Of a stretch of DNA of 64,000 nucleotides, positions 10,892 to 43,412 are shown in pieces. The translations under genes and the position numbers were made by a program. Numbering within the stretch: the first letter of the stretch is position 1; the number at the start of each line of letters is the position of its first letter. The notes under the pieces are model-generated. The model saw only the letters and a program-made list of their open reading frames with translations. It ran no database searches and was not told the origin of the DNA. The DNA lies in the NCBI RefSeq assembly GCF_057098645.1, contig NZ_CM169472.1, one strand, 5' to 3'.

Positions 10892-11257
10892 TCACAGTCC
10901 GATGATATCGTCTGCCCTGCCATGACCTCCGGACACCTCCGGCAGCGTCGGGTCCGGCATACCACTCGCCGTTTCACTGACTGACTTCTGGCGATGGCAT
11001 TCGGTACAGAGCGTCCAGAGATTCGTCTCCTCATTACCACCACCGAACTGAAGTGCAATGCGGTGATCGAGTTCACTGTCACAAAGGTCAACCACACGCC
11101 CACAGAGACAGCACTGTCCGGCATCCCTCAGCCAGATACGACGCTTGAGGGAAACCCGGGCACTGCCACTGACCCGACGCTGTTCACCCTTCAGGACATT
11201 CACCCGCCGGGTATTCAGAGTTTTGATTCTGCTCTGGAGTGTACGAAGCTCAGCCAT
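10892..11257 (-). CDS. HNH endonuclease (terminase-associated)
   Basis: Motifs CCLCGRVVDLCDSELDHRIALQFGGGNEETNLWTLCTECHRQK; sits immediately upstream of terS as in HK97-type cos phages. Confidence 0.8.
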   Translation of the reverse strand: MAELRTLQSRIKTLNTRRVNVLKGEQRRVSGSARVSLKRRIWLRDAGQCCLCGRVVDLCDSELDHRIALQFGGGNEETNLWTLCTECHRQKSVSETASGMPDPTLPEVSGGHGRADDIIGL

Positions 11258-13677: not shown

Positions 13678-13883
13678 TATTCACCTCTCGCAGCCTTGCG
13701 CTTATCTTCTTTAATCTTGAAATAAAGGTTTGTCAGATACGTCAGCAGGCCAAACAGCAGACTCCCCAGCACACCTATTGCCACCCACTGGGACGGAGAG
13801 ACTTTGTCCAGCAGCTGCAGTAACCAGTATCCCGTCCCCACCGCTGACGTGGTGTATGACACACCCGTTGTGATTTTTTCCAT
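13677..13883 (-). CDS. S: Pinholin (phage 21 S-like)
   Basis: [68 protein letters not shown]; two TMDs; ATG at 13883. Confidence 0.75.
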
Positions 13884-14175
13884 CTGATGTATGTCTCCGT
13901 CACCGCCGACAGAAAATGAAAGTAAAGGAAAACAAAAAGCCGCCAGTGTCACCCACTGACGGCCAACTCCGGGAGCCGTGATTATGGCATTCAGGCTCTG
14001 CTAAAAATGCCAGATAACATTCCGACCAACCCCTGATTCAGGTTATAAATGACACAATATCTTGACAACATCCGTCACTGTCTGTCAGAAAATGTACTGC
14101 CAAATATAAGTATCATGTGAAGTACATCTACCCGTTTTAGCCAGCGTCCTTCAGAGTGGGCGCTGGCTTTTTTTA

Positions 14176-16026
14176 TTATGCTGCCGGTGCATTTATCTCC
14201 AGCACCAGGCTTTCTATCTCAACGCCATACGCTGCATTTTTTGTAACATCCGTCAGCGTCAGCGCATTCAGCCCCAGTGTCAGACTGTCTTTTATGACCT
14301 GGAATGCCGGGCCAGCCACTCCATTCAGTTTCGGAGTAACCGTGGCACTGCCGGCGGTGAACACCAGCTCCAGCGTCTGCCAGTCGTTACCGTAATCGCC
14401 GAACTCCCCCAGCTTCGTGTTTCCGGCTTTCCTGTGATGCATCAGATTCACTCTGCCGTCAGTGGTCTGAGTAAAGTACGACATCAGGAACGGATTACCG
14501 GTACCCGTCATCGCCACATCATCAGGAACGGGAGCATCCGTATACAGATAAATCCCCAGCCCGAACTGATTGTTGGTCAGTGCGCCTGACAGGCGGAACT
14601 TACAGGTCAGTCTGCCGCCCTGTGTCAGCAGGGTAATTGCGTCATCCACCGGATGCGTCAGGGACCAGGTTTTATTGCTCTGCTTGGTGATCTTAAATAC
14701 ACCACCCGACAACTGAATTCCGCCATCCTTAATGCTCCAGCCCTGCGCAGCAGCCTCTCCGGCTGCCGGCAGCAGGGAGATTGTGCGAACGGACGTATCT
14801 GCAGACGGACCCGATGGCGTGTTGCCGCCGGGCGAGGGTTTGATTTCCGGTGCCTTACCACTGATGAAGGCTGAGGTGCGCCCGGCTGCGTTCAGAATAG
14901 CGGTTGCCAGACGATCCGGAATAATGCTCCTGCGCGCCCATGAACTGAAATGTGTCGGGCGGTTTGATGATACCTGGTTTCCATTCGTTCTCGATGCCGC
15001 ACCGTAATATCCTGATGCCGGAATATCCGGATCTTCTGCCGGCGCGTTAGTGGCGGTATTGACGCCGTTACCGTCTGTCATGAAGGGCACAAAATAAACG
15101 CCCTCACTCTCCCTGTTTTTATACCCGCCGTACACGGTGTCGTACTGGGTAGCGTATGTATTTTTCCAGTAATACGTCGTGTCACCACAAATCCACGGCA
15201 CATCTGCAGCGCTGCCACCATGGCACTGCGCGTTAAACACAGTGAGGTCAGCACGAAACTGCTTCAGCATGGCTGTAAACAGCGCAGGTTGCTGTGCGTG
15301 GGTGGCGGCGCTCATGTCAAACTCTCCCTGCATCCAGCACACCGCCAGCAACACATTTTTCGGGTTCTTCTGTAATGCAGCTTTAGTGCGCGCAATCAGG
15401 TCCTGATATAACGGTTTACCCACACCCCAGCGCGCCGAATCCTGGCTGGCCCCCGCGTCCGCACTGAATGTCCCCTCCGCGCCCTGGGTGAATGCCGAAC
15501 CACCACGACAGCATGGTACCAGCAGGATCCCCGCGTTATTCGGGATATACGGAAGCAGTTTTTTGGCAATATGTAAGCCCTGGCCGACACAGCCGTACTG
15601 CCCTTTGCTCAGGTCTGCCTTCGGATGATTCAGCGTACTCATATCCTGCACATCATGCAGGCAGTGGTCGGCCGGAATAATATCGTTATATCTGCAGGCA
15701 GCCCCGCCCGGCGTCACTGTACTGCGGCGCGCCAGCTGTTTAATGCGCGGATCCGGAGCATCGTATGAATCCGGCAGCGGAAGCCCTTCACCGTAAGCCA
15801 TGGCATTGGACTGCCCGGCCAGTACGATGACGTAGTACCAATCCGGCTCAGTTGCACCACTGACCACCACATCACCTTCTGCTGTAATCGCCTGCATCAG
15901 GGTATAAGGGGTTATGGCCACCGGACTACCAAACGGCTGCCAGCCCTCTTTCAGTTTGTGTGTCAGCTTTTCCGCAAGGTCTGACGGCGACGCCGCCCTG
16001 ACAACATCATAATGTTTAATCGACAT
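14176..16026 (-). CDS. nanS: Prophage 9-O-acetyl-sialic acid esterase (NanS-p-like)
   Basis: 616-aa protein in the conserved position between Q/tRNA and the holin, where Stx-type phages carry nanS-p. Confidence 0.6.
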   Translation of the reverse strand: MSIKHYDVVRAASPSDLAEKLTHKLKEGWQPFGSPVAITPYTLMQAITAEGDVVVSGATEPDWYYVIVLAGQSNAMAYGEGLPLPDSYDAPDPRIKQLARRSTVTPGGAACRYNDIIPADHCLHDVQDMSTLNHPKADLSKGQYGCVGQGLHIAKKLLPYIPNNAGILLVPCCRGGSAFTQGAEGTFSADAGASQDSARWGVGKPLYQDLIARTKAALQKNPKNVLLAVCWMQGEFDMSAATHAQQPALFTAMLKQFRADLTVFNAQCHGGSAADVPWICGDTTYYWKNTYATQYDTVYGGYKNRESEGVYFVPFMTDGNGVNTATNAPAEDPDIPASGYYGAASRTNGNQVSSNRPTHFSSWARRSIIPDRLATAILNAAGRTSAFISGKAPEIKPSPGGNTPSGPSADTSVRTISLLPAAGEAAAQGWSIKDGGIQLSGGVFKITKQSNKTWSLTHPVDDAITLLTQGGRLTCKFRLSGALTNNQFGLGIYLYTDAPVPDDVAMTGTGNPFLMSYFTQTTDGRVNLMHHRKAGNTKLGEFGDYGNDWQTLELVFTAGSATVTPKLNGVAGPAFQVIKDSLTLGLNALTLTDVTKNAAYGVEIESLVLEINAPAA

Positions 16027-16112
16027 CGAATTTCTCCCGTGTACAGGAACAGAGTTAAAAAGCCGGAACCGGAATCAAATCACAGGATGACCATCTGCCA
16101 GTGGCTGGTCGT

Positions 16113-16140
16113 AAAAAAAAGGCCGCGCCATGCGCAGCCG
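16113..16140 (-). terminator. Rho-independent terminator upstream of nanS-p
   Basis: Minus strand reads cggctgcgcatggcgcggcc followed by T8. Confidence 0.5.
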
Positions 16141-16340
16141 GAAATAAAGGGATAACGATGATAGTTTGAGAAAAACAGAAATAACACTTTTGTGGCAAAG
16201 CATGGTGCCGGGTGCCTCCCGGTGAATTCAGTACCAGCACCTGAATCCGCGATTATCCCATATACCTACTCGCTGATTGCCCCTCCGCACAGGGGGATTC
16301 ACCATGCAGTAGTATTTTTAATAAACAGTAAACAAAAAAA

Positions 16341-16508
16341 TCAAGCATTATGCAGGCTGTTTCTTTTTATCACCGGCCACAGCAATACCACAATGCCGCA
16401 GACCAGCACCCCATCCGCCAGCACCGACATGATTCTGCTGGTGAAATCCACCATCACCACCAGAAACAGCAGGAGTGCAGCCACAGCCAGGCGCAGTTTT
16501 ACCGTCAC
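16341..16508 (-). CDS. Possible small membrane protein (GTG start) coupled to the TerB-like gene
   Basis: 55 codons, VTVKLRLAVAALLLFLVVMVDFTSRIMSVLADGVLVCGIVVLLWPVIKRNSLHNA; GTGA overlap with upstream stop. Confidence 0.3.
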   Translation of the reverse strand: MTVKLRLAVAALLLFLVVMVDFTSRIMSVLADGVLVCGIVVLLWPVIKRNSLHNA

Positions 16509-16966
16509 TGGTGATTCTCCAGACGAAGACCCAGAACACCGGCAATCTCTTCCAGCACCTTGCGCTCTTCCGGCTCAATTTCGCCGTCTGCCTCCGCAAT
16601 GGCCACCGCCACATCCAGCACATCTTCCGCTTCACGCGTATCGTGTTTCACATCCTCGATCTCACGTAACGCCGCACGACGACCAATTTTAAAGTTCGTA
16701 TCCAGCTGACCGATAATGGTTGCGCTCATCGCATTAATTTCTGACGTAAACGCGGACAGCGCTGGCTGATTACGCAGTACCTGTTCGATCTTCGCTTTCT
16801 CGGAAGCCTCACATTCACCATCTGCACAGGCCACCAGGTATGCGGCGTTAATCACCGCCTGTGCCAGATCGCGTTTTTCAAACTTTTTAATTTCCGTTGC
16901 CGCTCTGCGGGCTTTTTTTACCAAAAATACCAAACATCGTGACGTTCCTTTGGGTGGGTGAGCCAA
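16505..16966 (-). CDS. TerB-like (tellurite-resistance family) protein
   Basis: 153 aa with two ACADGECEASE / AEADGEIEPEE repeats typical of TerB-like domains; occupies the locus where stxAB sits in Stx phages. Confidence 0.45.
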   Translation of the reverse strand: MAHPPKGTSRCLVFLVKKARRAATEIKKFEKRDLAQAVINAAYLVACADGECEASEKAKIEQVLRNQPALSAFTSEINAMSATIIGQLDTNFKIGRRAALREIEDVKHDTREAEDVLDVAVAIAEADGEIEPEERKVLEEIAGVLGLRLENHQ

Positions 16967-17107
16967 CGCCCGGGAGCGATCTGCCCACAGAGAAAGTCAC
17001 ACTGACCACTCCGTAAGCTCCCCCCCGAAAGGCTCTGTGGTTGGTATGCGCCGGGCGTGGCGCGGATACAAAAAAGGTCCGCAAAAGCGAGCGAGGGAAA
17101 ATAAGTG

Positions 17108-17184
17108 TGGTGCGTTGTACTGGGTTCGAACCAGTGACCGATTGCTTAGAAGGCTGGCGTTCTATCCCGATGAGCTAATGGCGG
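17108..17184 (-). tRNA. tRNA-Arg(UCU)-like, possibly degenerate
   Basis: Good T-arm (ACTGG TTCGAAC CCAGT), ACAACGC-A-CCA 3' end and anticodon loop CTTCTAA, but acceptor and anticodon stems pair poorly. Confidence 0.45.
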
Positions 17185-17185
17185 T

Positions 17186-17261
17186 TGGTGGCCCTTGCTG
17201 GATTTGAACCAGCGACCTGGCGATTATGAGTCGCTCGCTCTCACCACTGAGCTAAAGGGCC
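17186..17261 (-). tRNA. tRNA-Ile(CAU) / tRNA-Met-type (ileZ-like)
   Basis: GGCCCTTTAGCTCAGTGGTGAGAGCGAGCGACTCATAATCGCCAGGTCGCTGGTTCAAATCCAGCAAGGGCCACCA folds as a cloverleaf, anticodon CAT. Confidence 0.7.
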
Positions 17262-17574
17262 TAGCGTAGGATAATAACGTTACGAAATCAATGTTGCAAG
17301 AGTTCACAAATTCACTGATTCAAAATTATTCTTGTAAAAAATCTTTTAACGTCAGGCACAAAGAGCCTGTACATAGATTTGTGTAATTGCCTGATTTTGA
17401 TATGTTCAATCCAGCATCAAATGAAGGTTAATTTATGGACGAAAAACAGTTACAGGCTCTAATGACCTTTATACGATTGACCCAAATAAAAAAAGCCACC
17501 GTTGCAACTTAAGAGTCACTAACGGCAGCTTATGCGAATAGTGTTGCTCATTTGCTCAACGATGTCAACACGTT

Positions 17575-18063
17575 CTATGCTACATGCTTAATTTTCTCTA
17601 CACGTTTCCGGTTTTTAAACGCACTATCCAGAATCGGGTAAATCATAAACAACGAGGCATTGAGGATTTCGTCAACTTCCCGTCGACAGGTTGCTAGCGA
17701 TGGTTTTTGAATGCGCCCGCCGCCCCGGCATAACATCTTGCGAGGTCTTGCGACGCTATGATAGTAAGATGCAATGGCGTGCTTGGAAGAGCCGTGGGCG
17801 TAGTAGCTGAGGAGGATGCCAAAGGCTTTCTTGTCAATGTACATGACGGAATCGACGACCTGAGAAATCAACATTCCATCATCATCATTACACATTGGCC
17901 TTGTCATAACTCTTCCCGGCTCCACGCTCTCCATGAATTTAGCTATTACGCTGCTCATGCGCTTTTCCAGACGACCTGAATAAACCCATGCGCCCCACAG
18001 TTCAAGCCAGCCATTCAGCCACTCATGCTGTTCTTTGGTGAGGTTTAGTTCTCTTATGCCCAC
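17575..18063 (-). CDS. Q: Late-gene antiterminator Q (putative)
   Basis: 162-aa ORF directly upstream of the tRNAs and late genes, after the nin region. Confidence 0.5.
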
Positions 18064-18725
18064 GCGCCTTCTCCCTGTACCTGAATCAATGTGAGATTTC
18101 CGCAGAACACTGCGCCGGTATCGATATACATCTGGTTGGCAAATTTGAGTGGTTTCACTGCTTGCGTATGACCAAAGATGAACGTGTCCGCGCCTTTGAT
18201 TTCTTTCACGATCCCGTCTTGTGAGTTGCTGATTCGTTCGCGGTTCCAGATTACCTGCTGATGATCAACTGGCTTTCCAAACTCGTATTTATCACAAGGA
18301 TAATCGGCGTGGCAGATGACATATTTTTTTCCTTTACTCACCAGTTCGATGATTAACGGAAGTTCATCTGCTTTATGGGCAAGAGCTTTAGCCAGAATTT
18401 CTTTGTCGTAATCGAGATTAAAGAACCAGCCACCGCCATTAAGCAGCCAGTGATTGACGTTTCCACGCTCTGATAAGCCATCAATCATCATTTGCTCATG
18501 GTTTCCACGTACAGCTCTGAACCAGGGGAATGTGATTAATTCCAGGCATTCTACGTTCTCTGTACCGCGATCAACCAAATCGCCCACCGAGATAAGCAGG
18601 TCTTTTTTGGTGTCGAATCCTATCGTCTCCAGTTTTTTCATCAGGTTCGTGTAGCATCCGTGCAGATCGCCAACTACCCAAATATTTCGGTATTTGCTGC
18701 CATCAATTCTTTCGTAGATATTCAT
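18054..18725 (-). CDS. Ser/Thr protein phosphatase (lambda NinI-like)
   Basis: Metallophosphatase motifs GDLHGC, GDLVDRG, GNHE. Confidence 0.8.
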
Positions 18726-19324
18726 GCAACCTCACTTCTGCTGTTTCGCAGTTTTTTAAGTTTCTGTTGATACTCCGCCTTGATGGCCCTGCACTCTTCG
18801 ACAGTCCAGCGATAGCGGTTATGGTTTGATTCGATTTCCTCTACTGCTTCCTGCCCGATGCGGCTAATCAGTTCGACGCGATACGGAACGAGATTTCCGC
18901 TTTTGTGCTGGTTGCACACCACGCATTGCTTGTGAATATTGCGTTCATCAAATCGGAGTTGAGGTGCCGCAGCAGTTGTCCGGTAATGTCCGGCATCCCA
19001 CTGAGCAGACGTGAGCGTTCCGCACGAGATACATGGTAAGTCGCGGTCTCTTTCTCTGATGAAGGCGTTTACGGCTTGTTGGGCTTGTTTAATCCAGTAA
19101 CTGCGGGGCTTTAAGGCGAGTTTTTGAATCTTAAGTTTATCTTTCTGTTTCTGCTCCTCTCGTCGTCGTTTCTTCTCTGCTGCTTTTTCCGCTTTTTCGC
19201 GTTCTTTACTTCGTCGTTCGAGTGCTATCTTGGTTCCACAAATCTCATTACACAAATATTGATTTTGATATTTTGGTATAAACCATTCATTGCAACATTT
19301 ACATTTCCTTCGATAGATTCGCAT
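18722..19324 (-). CDS. ninG: NinG recombination protein
   Basis: [15 protein letters not shown]...[30 protein letters not shown]... collinear with lambda NinG; ATG at 19324. Confidence 0.8.
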
Positions 19325-19865
19325 AAGTGCTCCTTTCGTTGCCGGAAAAATCACCGTAATACTTATCTCGGGCTTCTTCAGCAACTAGTACCGCTAACTC
19401 CAGATCATCAAAGCATCCGAAGTGTTTACTCTTTCCATGGAATCCTAGCCTAACATTCCATTTTTTCTGTCGTTTGTGCCAAGTAACCCCTCTGCAACCT
19501 GATTTGCTATTCTTTCGGATCCTTATATTTCTTGAATTTTCTATTGGCAGGCATTCTCTTAAATTTTCTGGCCTATTGTCGGTCCTAATTCCATTAACGT
19601 GGTCAATTTGACCAGCAGGCCAACGATTATGAGTTATGTAAAAAACTAAGACGTGAGTTTTATATCTACGCCCATCTATCATGATCATTGAATAACCGTT
19701 GGAATCAAAAGTTCCAGCAACACTATTTAATGCTATCCTTCCCTGAGTGGGAACTTTCCATCTAAATACCCCGGTAGATTTATCGAAACTTAGTAACTCA
19801 AATATCCTTTTAACAGTTAAATCTTCTCTTTTACGGTTACATCGTCTTCGCGCTGGTTTAGCCAT
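19299..19865 (-). CDS. HNH homing endonuclease with AP2 domain, carrying the NinG N-terminus
   Basis: Begins MAKPARRRC (as lambda NinG) then HNH motif [16 protein letters not shown] and AP2-like [30 protein letters not shown]. Confidence 0.7.
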
Positions 19866-20059
19866 CGCCTTCTTCCTCCGTAATGGTTTTCTGAATTTGG
19901 CCACCTGAACAGAGCTCACCAAAGCTATGGATGTCGGTATTTCCACAATACCAAGATGGCGAAAATAACTGCATGATAAGCCTCAGGGAAAAGGGAAGAC
20001 ACTACCCCCGATAATTCAGAAACAAATCGAAATACATGAACTAAAGAAAAAATCACAAC

Positions 20060-42262: not shown

Positions 42263-43412
42263 TACGTTTCACCTTCAGCAGTGCGATAAGCAAATCGAAC
42301 AGCGCGTCGGTAAGCACCGCCAGAACAATTACCGGGATCACCCCCAGCAACACTAAATCAATGGCGCTGCTTAGCAGCCCCTGGAAAACCAGCGCACCAA
42401 AACCGCCTGCGCCGATTAACGCCGCAATCACCGCCATACCTACAGTTTGCACCATCACCACCCGCAGGCTGCGCAGAAATACCGGTAACGCCAGCGGTAA
42501 CTGAACATGCAGGAAACGCTGCGCCCCGCTCATCCCCATCGCTCTGGCGCTTTCCAGCACATCGCGCGGGATCTGGTTCAAACCGACTACCACGCCGCGC
42601 ACCAGCGGCAGCAAGGCATAGAGCACCAGCGCAATCAGTGCGGGTGTCATTCCGGTTCCTGCTATGCCGAGCGTCCCCAGCCACGGAAAGGCCGTAACCA
42701 GCGCGGCAAGCGGCGCAATCAACAGGCCAAAGAGCGCCACCGAAGGCACGGTCTGAATCACATTGAGCAGAGAAAAAATTGCCCCCTGCCGAGCAGTGGA
42801 AAAGTAGCACCAGATGCCCAACGGCACACCAATCACTAACGCAGGCAGCACCGCACCAAACAGCAACGTCAGATGTTGTGCCAGCGCGTCGTCAAACACA
42901 TCCTGACGGTTGGCGTATTCTTTCATTAGTGAGAGATCGTTAAGCGTGCCGGAGTACAGCAACCACAGCGGAATAATGGCAATCTGCATATGCAACAACC
43001 AGCGCCACAGCGGATGCGTGGAGATTCGGCGGATGGCATCGCTACAGGCCAGCAATGCCAGCGCCGCAGCCAGCCAGAAACCACTGCCGAGGCTGGTACG
43101 CGCCAGCGCACTGCCATTTTGCGCCAGTTGGGTCGCCGCCTTTCCAGCTCCCCACACCAGCAATACGAAGACGAATTGCGCCAGAATGAGTGCACAAATG
43201 CTGCCTTTTTTACCGGGAATAAAACAGGCCGTCAGCCAGGCGCAACCAACGCCCACCAGCATCCAGATCGTTTGCGGCCACAGCTGCCAGAGATGACGCC
43301 CCTCACCCGAAACTAAACGATTAGGCGCGTAACTGATAAACGGCAGCGCCGCTGCGATTGCCGTCAGCAACAGCAGCAGCGCCAGAACAGGATTAATACG
43401 GAAATAAGTCAC
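42255..43412 (-). CDS. yehY: Osmoprotectant ABC transporter permease
   Basis: 385-aa permease. Confidence 0.85.

Follow-up and report, generated by a model that had tools for sequence, protein, structure and literature searches.

We examined a 64,000-nucleotide (nt) stretch of an Escherichia coli chromosome (contig NZ_CM169472.1 of RefSeq assembly GCF_057098645.1; hereafter, the window), which carries, inserted beside mlrA (yehV), a lambdoid prophage closely related to Shiga toxin 1 (Stx1) phages. In this prophage, a gene for an HNH endonuclease with an AP2-type domain occupies the 5' end of ninG (rap), the nuclease and ninG both lying on the minus strand. We interpret the arrangement as a free-standing homing-endonuclease cassette of the HNH_3+AP2 type that captured the translation start of ninG and supplied the gene with a replacement, probably cleavage-immune, 5' end; we give this interpretation a probability of roughly two in three.

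Pairwise blastn against the lambda genome (J02459) resolved the region into three collinear blocks (Table 1). Between the first and the second lies a cassette that consists of the nuclease body without a start codon of its own, a new Shine-Dalgarno sequence and ATG, and diverged ninG codons 1–28. The lambda match of the first block includes ATGGCTAAACCAGCGCGAAGACGATGTAA and is a likeness of DNA that reaches beyond the peptide. A preliminary description of this DNA, made from the sequence alone, had recognised the start of lambda NinG in the peptide MAKPARRRC, and the match of 40 of 42 nt, non-coding bases included, bears this out. Similarity between the window and every locus with a ninF context begins at 19878, and the lambda-type remnant (copy 1 in Table 1; GC content 52%) now provides the nuclease with its translation start. 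The nuclease core has a GC content of 39%, against 49–52% in the flanks.

Alignment with uninterrupted lambdoid ninG, the check that the preliminary description had proposed, defined both junctions. In all filled sites the flank ends at lambda 42460 and resumes at lambda 42525, the filled sites being those of the window, of E. coli UMNF18 and of a Salmonella Infantis prophage, and the empty ones those of lambda and of hundreds of ninF–ninG loci. UMNF18 and the Salmonella Infantis prophage have a normal ninF upstream, with a left flank that corresponds to lambda 42297–42460 (93.9% over 164 nt), and the same breakpoints recur in three left-flank contexts and two host genera. Phages that are otherwise collinear thus differ in the presence or absence of the cassette at exactly this site. 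The idea of an in-frame insertion that took over the ninG start holds in that the nuclease is fused to the first 9 2/3 codons of ninG, but it was not a simple insertion, since 64 nt of ninG were replaced.

Could the same layout have arisen with no insertion at all? Two genes might be ancestrally adjacent, with MAKPARRRC a coincidence, or the insert might be a spliced intron or intein; we regard either version as extremely improbable. Its attraction is that deleting 19836–19299 in silico (538 nt) restores an in-frame, 201-codon ninG with a natural-looking N-terminus, superficially as a spliceable element would. Against it stand the match to lambda in non-coding as well as coding bases and the hundreds of cassette-free ninF–ninG loci. 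Moreover, the exact breakpoints common to empty and filled sites exclude an ancestral two-gene layout without similarity at the junction, which the preliminary description had named as the alternative.

As for spliced elements, no Rfam match to a group I or group II intron was found in 19100–20000 on either strand at E-values up to 1, and two further features speak against an intron: the downstream ninG reading frame, which we call ninG', has its own Shine-Dalgarno sequence and ATG, and the 5' codons of ninG are present twice. An intein is impossible because the nuclease ends at its own stop codon (TAA, 19301–19299) in a frame other than that of ninG', with which it overlaps by 26 nt. The duplicated codons form a 14-nt imperfect direct repeat (Table 1) that flanks the 538 nt of the in silico deletion; we read it as ninG codons 6–10 of two alleles (the recipient's in copy 1, the donor's in copy 2) and not as a target-site duplication.

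We next consider where translation of the nuclease begins. The open reading frame (ORF) at 19299–19946 of the preliminary description exists and encodes 215 amino acids (aa) from a GTG; MAKPARRRC begins only at its residue 28, which corresponds to the ATG at 19865–19863. As the GTG at 19946 exists only in this left-flank context, the start is most likely ATG 19865, giving a product of 188 aa (567 nt). The RefSeq 'HNH endonuclease' WP_001108084.1, annotated in identical DNA of other strains, is this same 188-aa product. A direct scan of the sequence found no in-frame ATG, GTG or TTG between nuclease codons 2 and 59. Thus, a full-length enzyme can be obtained only from the captured ninG start.

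The assignment of the ORF to an HNH endonuclease with an AP2-type domain was confirmed by Pfam matches to HNH_3 (PF13392, E 9.1e-11) and AP2 (PF00847, E 9.6e-4) and by PHROG 99 'HNH endonuclease' (E 1.4e-71). In a 15-sequence family alignment that included the query, residues H71, D88, H89, N101, N110 and N113 are invariant, and the nuclease retains all of them. The family initiator Met falls at query position 15, so that nuclease residues 1–14 are an N-terminal extension, of which residues 1–10 come from ninG. Most family members end no more than about 5 residues past the motif GDF(A/S), near query residue 177. The family core thus spans residues about 15–177, and residues 178–188 are a C-terminal read-through into the start region of ninG', with the TAA inside ninG' codons 8–9.

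Homology searches place the borders of the core at the same positions. With tblastn, 3,059 phage records contained homologues, none of which exceeds 44% identity except those in four records of the same cassette; these alignments begin at query residues 12–16 and finish near 171–174. HMMER, run exhaustively on 1.84 billion cluster representatives, gave 104,774 matches, none above 48% identity. Relatives align at 40–48% identity over residues about 15–177, and single-domain relatives of 160–180 aa align their own residues 2–5 to query residues 15–17. Between this level and the near-identical copies (at least 98.8% DNA identity; 99% for protein-cluster representatives), the word-index and HMMER searches returned a single relative, a 104-aa fragment of 89% identity, and no distant DNA relative of the cassette was found in the phage set.

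The AlphaFold2 model of the nuclease has a mean predicted local distance difference test score (pLDDT) of 87, with a confident core. Residues 1–12 are without secondary structure (mean pLDDT 61 for residues 1–10), and residues 178–188 score below 50. The C-terminal domain, with strands at 127–130, 135–142 and 145–152 and a helix at 155–173 (pLDDT at least 90), superposes on that of AtERF1 (1gcc) with a root-mean-square deviation of 1.4 A over 51 residues (Foldseek probability 1.00), and also on the AP2 domain of TEM1. For the nuclease half, the best match in the Protein Data Bank is I-HmuI (1u3e; probability 1.00, 106 columns, 17% identity), with a weak E-value of 0.012. Because the Foldseek E-values are weak, the structural matches back the Pfam calls and cannot stand alone; searching the solved structures by sequence gave only a weak plant AP2 match. 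The likeness of the predicted model to I-HmuI suggests a monomeric, possibly strand-nicking enzyme. The nuclease is thus a typical member of the HNH_3/AP2 family by sequence and predicted fold, with borrowed ends.

What became of ninG itself? Read from its ATG at 19324, ninG' is a full-length member of its family: Pfam NinG (PF05766, E 1.3e-82) aligns residues 4–194 with model positions 5–192 of 193, and PHROG 171 matches with an E-value of 5e-116. Lambda NinG (Rap) is a branched-DNA (junction-specific) endonuclease. The alignment of the internal restart near NinG residues 6–10, already noted in the preliminary description, is exact enough to set R5-R6-K7-C8 of ninG' on R6-R7-R8-C9 of lambda. 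The spacing of the putative ligands is C8-x2-C11-x13-C25-x3-C29 in ninG' and C-x2-C-x13-C-x3-H in phages ES18 and SE22. The imported codons rejoin the resident gene at ninG codon 29 (codon 33 in lambda's annotated 204-codon numbering), so that a full-length NinG with an intact cysteine motif is still encoded.

The two parts of ninG' differ sharply. From codon 29 onward, ninG' is 97% identical to lambda in DNA; the first 28 codons diverge. The first 84 nt have a GC content of 27% (25% at third codon positions), compared with 49% (48%) in the rest of the gene. The DNA identity of this 5' end to lambda, ES18, SE22 and Proteus phage Pm34 is 0.56–0.58, whereas those alleles are 0.63–0.90 identical to one another. 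The first 28 codons share about 53% amino-acid and 57% nucleotide identity with lambda ninG, and they alter residues that are conserved in all four natural alleles: WFHP becomes WFIP, WW becomes YL and SPE becomes NEI. Counted by hand, codons 7–15 are about 82% and codons 16–29 about 43% identical to the ES18-type allele.

The diverged 5' end was always found with the nuclease. A 110-nt blastn query found no copy without the nuclease among the 537 matching complete E. coli genomes (537/537 with nuclease), and none was found in IMG/VR (52/52 loci with nuclease), where all 52 loci carry the same 48-nt DNA string, although the back-translated pattern used there permitted any synonymous codon. In the phage collection, tblastn with the 32-aa N-terminus gave no cassette-free match better than 57% identity, to an ES18-type allele, and everything retrieved by a 40-aa protein search with the ninG' N-terminus was a fragment of the cassette's own allele. 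The 5' end of ninG that follows the nuclease is thus foreign and part of the cassette, and the second ninG start accordingly belongs to the imported DNA. The proposal that ninG was left to use a new start codon is correct as to the use of a second start; that start came with the cassette, and it may be the native ninG start of the donor and not one improvised after the insertion. The sequence upstream of ninG' reads ...GGC AAC GAA AGG AGC ACT TAT G, in which one T-to-G change would convert a TAA at codon 177 into GAA. Because a single change separates this codon from a stop, the ancestral donor layout may have been 'nuclease stop, AGGAG, ATG of ninG'', an ordinary compact junction of two adjacent genes.

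How widespread is the cassette? Its DNA is present in 536 of 5,426 complete E. coli genomes (about 10%, mostly enterohemorrhagic E. coli, EHEC), in four phage records that represent two phages, the Stx1 phages SH2026Stx1 and AU6Stx1, in one Salmonella Infantis prophage and in 52 IMG/VR contigs. Cassette-free ninF–ninG junctions are the only kind in at least 474 other E. coli genomes, and the second matching locus in O157:H7 genomes of this dataset is probably a cassette-free ninG. Carriers include podovirus-type Stx1 phages of E. coli, siphovirus-type prophages and the Salmonella prophage, with a cassette identity of at least 98.8%. Their left flanks are mainly of two kinds, either ninF or a 532-nt AT-rich spacer followed by an opposite-strand gene of 590 aa, and the switch between them falls exactly at 19878/19879. 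The right flanks also vary (ninH–Q or phosphatase–Q).

A gapped analysis of 50 loci, which yielded 32 distinct haplotypes, compared diversity within the cassette and beside it. Segregating sites number 24 over the 596 nt of the cassette (nucleotide diversity, pi, 0.0048) and 76 over the next 519 nt, in ninG (pi 0.031), so that the cassette is about six times less diverse than the 3' part of ninG, with the shift at about 19240. The nuclease ORF is intact in 49 of the 50 loci, and its unique changes (13 non-synonymous, 10 synonymous) give a rough dN/dS of about 0.35. Judged from these sequences, the cassette appears to be younger than the gene it occupies and under some purifying selection. It is from such population patterns that we infer the homing character of the element.

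Several observations weigh against active homing. The spacer-type left flank is shared by 517 of the 536 E. coli carriers, and the copy in O157:H7 strain 86-24 sits in a decayed prophage, beside a truncated IS30; one common left flank and a decayed prophage indicate that the prevalence in EHEC reflects mostly vertical inheritance and not many homing events. The low diversity of the cassette could also be explained by one recent origin and recombination of the downstream flank, and ordinary exchange of lambdoid modules could alone place the cassette in several backgrounds. Taken by itself, the AP2 match in Pfam is marginal (E about 1e-3). Finally, no donor lineage with a native nuclease start was found by word-index search, by tblastn or by HMMER on the 1.84 billion representatives. 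A locus with the spacer and the 590-aa gene but without the nuclease, which would show gain or loss, was likewise not found among the complete E. coli genomes.

Most of these points would suit a passive mosaic module, which entered once by illegitimate recombination and spread thereafter only by homologous recombination in the nin flanks and by vertical inheritance, with a nuclease that no longer homes or never homed here. The few distinct contexts seen fit such a history, as does the 3' region of ninG, which is 97–100% alike in all carriers and so offers ordinary recombination arms. We nevertheless find this alternative unlikely, though it is the one we take most seriously. A module that is merely carried along would not readily account for an ORF that is intact in all but one locus, with conserved catalytic residues and a dN/dS below 1, or for a cassette about sixfold less diverse than its immediate flank and yet at least 98.8% identical across the Salmonella prophage, the podovirus-type Stx1 phages and the siphovirus-type prophages. 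Furthermore, the ninG patch is strongly rewritten at otherwise conserved residues, as immunity of the target site predicts.

Conservation of the ORF, intact across hundreds of genomes, would also be expected of a domesticated nuclease, kept because it benefits the phage in attacks on competing lambdoid phages or satellites or as a partner of NinG/Rap in recombination, its position in ninG being a historical accident. Nucleases derived from homing-endonuclease genes have been co-opted in conflicts between phages and satellites (PMC10448857), and the gene uses the start signals of a recombination gene and overlaps ninG' by 26 nt. We consider domestication improbable: nothing points to another target in particular, standalone homing endonucleases of this same architecture occur at many unrelated phage sites (for example, near holin or helicase genes), and absolute linkage to a recoded segment of the neighbouring gene is a classic signature of homing.

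How would a homing cassette move between phages? Both proteins would be made from the early rightward transcript from pR through the nin region during lytic growth; a promoter scan found no promoter-like site on the minus strand in 19200–20500. The nuclease would nick or cut cassette-free ninG in or near lambda 42461–42524, and repair would copy the cassette from a co-infecting or co-induced carrier phage, with homology provided on the left by ninF and ninG nt 1–29 and on the right by ninG from about nt 94 onward. The rewritten ninG 5' end would shield the carrier from its own enzyme. The cassette probably arose when a nuclease gene situated immediately before a distant, low-GC ninG homologue was copied into a lambda-type ninG; the right junction would have formed by homologous recombination and the left one illegitimately, though in frame, at nt 29 of ninG.

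The HNH+AP2 combination is an established architecture of homing endonucleases, and a preference of AP2 domains for GC-rich sites has been reported (Magnani et al. 2004, as cited and summarised in PMC10448857). A link between this preference and the very low GC content of the ninG' 5' end is speculative. We tentatively propose a splicing-free form of homing inside coding sequence, although we would not wager on it at even odds: the cassette would borrow the ribosome-binding site and start codon of its target and deliver a recoded, AT-rich 5' end with new start signals, which would both restore the gene and remove the recognition site, possibly a GC-preferring one read by the AP2 domain. Because ninG lies close upstream of Q and stx in Stx phages, breaks at ninG during co-induction in EHEC could, under the same proposal, drive exchange of the Q–stx module.

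Parts of this arrangement resemble known systems. The Seg and Mob proteins of phage T4 are free-standing homing endonucleases with 'intronless homing', co-conversion of flanks and immunity by sequence differences. Like them, the ninG nuclease lies outside any intron or intein, and its expected target is in a neighbouring gene of cassette-free relatives; unlike the seg and mob genes, which are intergenic and have their own translation signals, it lies inside coding sequence, at codon 10 of its neighbour. In fungal mitochondria, group I intron ORFs encode endonucleases fused in frame to the upstream exon, an arrangement that needs splicing and often proteolysis. The ninG nuclease has a comparable N-terminal fusion that begins at the start of the host gene, but no intron is involved. 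Work by Friedrich and colleagues from 2007 on 'genes in pieces' reportedly found that insertion of mobE splits nrdA in Aeromonas phage Aeh1 and that both halves are separate functional polypeptides. There, too, an endonuclease gene lies within coding sequence and the host gene stays functional, as is predicted from sequence for ninG'; in contrast to Aeh1, the upstream piece of ninG amounts to just 9–10 codons and is fused to the nuclease, and the host gene is completed by the replacement 5' end that the cassette supplies.

Relatives by sequence share the domain order but not the borrowed ends. The HNH+AP2 homing endonucleases known from phages, cyanobacteria and protists (Magnani et al. 2004, as summarised in PMC10448857) and the 'IPA-HNH' genes of vibriophage ICP1 (Barth et al. 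2023, PMC10448857) have the same order, with an N-terminal HNH_3 and a C-terminal AP2. Members of the HNH+AP2 family use a start of their own that corresponds to a position about 14 residues into the ninG nuclease, and they end about 10 residues short of its stop, whereas the ninG nuclease uses the start of its host gene and runs into the start region of the next. I-HmuI of phage SPO1, the HNH nicking endonuclease that best matches the predicted nuclease half, is encoded within a group I intron and has a different C-terminal DNA-binding module; the ninG nuclease has no intron and an AP2 module.

Table 1. Features of the ninG locus and its blocks of similarity to lambda
Feature	Window position	Strand	Lambda (J02459) position	Evidence or remark
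Block 1: ninF end, ribosome-binding site of ninG and ninG nt 1-29 (counted from the ATG used here)	19878-19837		42419-42460	40/42 nt, E 2e-14
Block 2: rest of ninG	19240-18722		42525-43043	504/519 nt (97%)
Block 3: phosphatase gene	18716-18601		43233-43348	111/116 (95.7%)
Copy 1, lambda-type remnant: ninF end, ninG Shine-Dalgarno region, first 29 nt of ninG	19837..19878	-		blastn against lambda
Imported cassette, 596 nt, replacing 64 nt	19241..19836	-	42461-42524	breakpoints; seen only as this unit
HNH_3 + AP2 endonuclease ORF, 188 aa	19299..19865	-		Pfam, PHROG 99, family alignment, AlphaFold2, Foldseek
HNH_3 catalytic motif, residues 68-107	19545..19664	-		PF13392 and family-invariant residues
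AP2-type DNA-binding domain, residues 123-171	19353..19499	-		PF00847, predicted model, superposition on 1gcc
Shine-Dalgarno AAGGAG of ninG', 5 nt upstream of ATG 19324, within the 3' end of the nuclease ORF	19330..19335	-		sequence
ninG' (NinG/Rap family), 200 aa	18722..19324	-		Pfam NinG, PHROG 171
Diverged AT-rich ninG 5' end, codons 1-28	19241..19324	-		GC content, identity and linkage; candidate immunity or co-converted tract
Lambda-type ninG 3' part	18722..19240	-	42525-43043	504/519 nt
Left copy of the 14-nt direct repeat, CGAAGACGATGTAA	19837-19850	-		ninG codons 6-10
Right copy of the 14-nt imperfect direct repeat, CGAAGGAAATGTAA	19299..19312	-		11/14 nt identical to the left copy
Left-flank context: 532-nt AT-rich spacer and 590-aa moron gene, replacing ninF; outside the cassette	19879..22183	+		similarity to ninF loci ends at 19878

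Immediately downstream of ninG', the window lacks ninH: a Ser/Thr phosphatase gene follows directly, with a 4-nt overlap (18716–18725), and lambda 43044–43232 has no counterpart in the window. Other cassette carriers do have ninH.

On the left, the 590-aa gene (20411–22183, plus strand; GC content 35%) and its spacer (19879–20410) occupy the place of ninF and ninX, with ninE on one side and the nuclease on the other. Over its whole length the 590-aa protein aligns with PHROG 9230 (function unknown); it has no NCBIfam match and contains LTLNDFLDN twice in its N-terminal region. In complete E. coli genomes its gene is always beside the nuclease cassette (517 genomes). The spacer upstream of it holds a hexanucleotide repeat, AAATAG/TATTTC, in 5.8 copies at 20060–20094, and the same repeat has 17.8 copies in phage SH2026Stx1 (3327–3433 of the extracted locus). 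The different copy numbers point to a length-variable microsatellite near the likely promoter region of the 590-aa gene. In O157:H7 strain 86-24 (5954–7602 of the extracted locus), the spacer directly adjoins the truncated IS30 transposase gene, and the 590-aa gene is missing.

The integration site next to mlrA (yehV) is the classic one of Stx1 phages. Positions 13717–26685 of the window are 99.6% identical to strain 2013C-4991, in which no stx is annotated between Q and the SASA esterase; in this reference (NZ_CP027355.1, 243221–246306; about 13700–17575 of the window) the interval between Q and SASA is occupied by a tRNA-Ile, a TerB-family gene and a DUF3927 gene. Another small HNH endonuclease of the window, unrelated to the first and 121 aa long (10892–11257, minus strand), has the pattern CxxC...DH...CxxCH and lies just upstream of the terminase small subunit; it is the usual packaging-associated HNH of HK97-like phages. 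The nin region of the UMNF18 prophage has a second homing-endonuclease-like gene, with a NUMOD4 domain, between ninB and an adenine methyltransferase gene (2188–2790 of the extracted locus).

Text searches of the literature found no description of this locus or arrangement, and the genome announcement of SH2026Stx1 mentions neither gene. Both genes are already routinely annotated; what is new is their arrangement and its interpretation, and not an unknown gene. The labels 'HNH endonuclease' and 'NinG' hide a common chimeric history and a non-standard NinG N-terminus. Should the nuclease prove active, the locus would show that a selfish gene of this kind can reside in an ORF without splicing, by borrowing the start of its host and supplying a replacement front end. 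An active nuclease would also mean a programmed DNA break in the nin region, which in Stx-type phages would lie 1–2 kb upstream of stx and the antiterminator gene Q, and cutting during co-induction could promote recombination among toxin phages.

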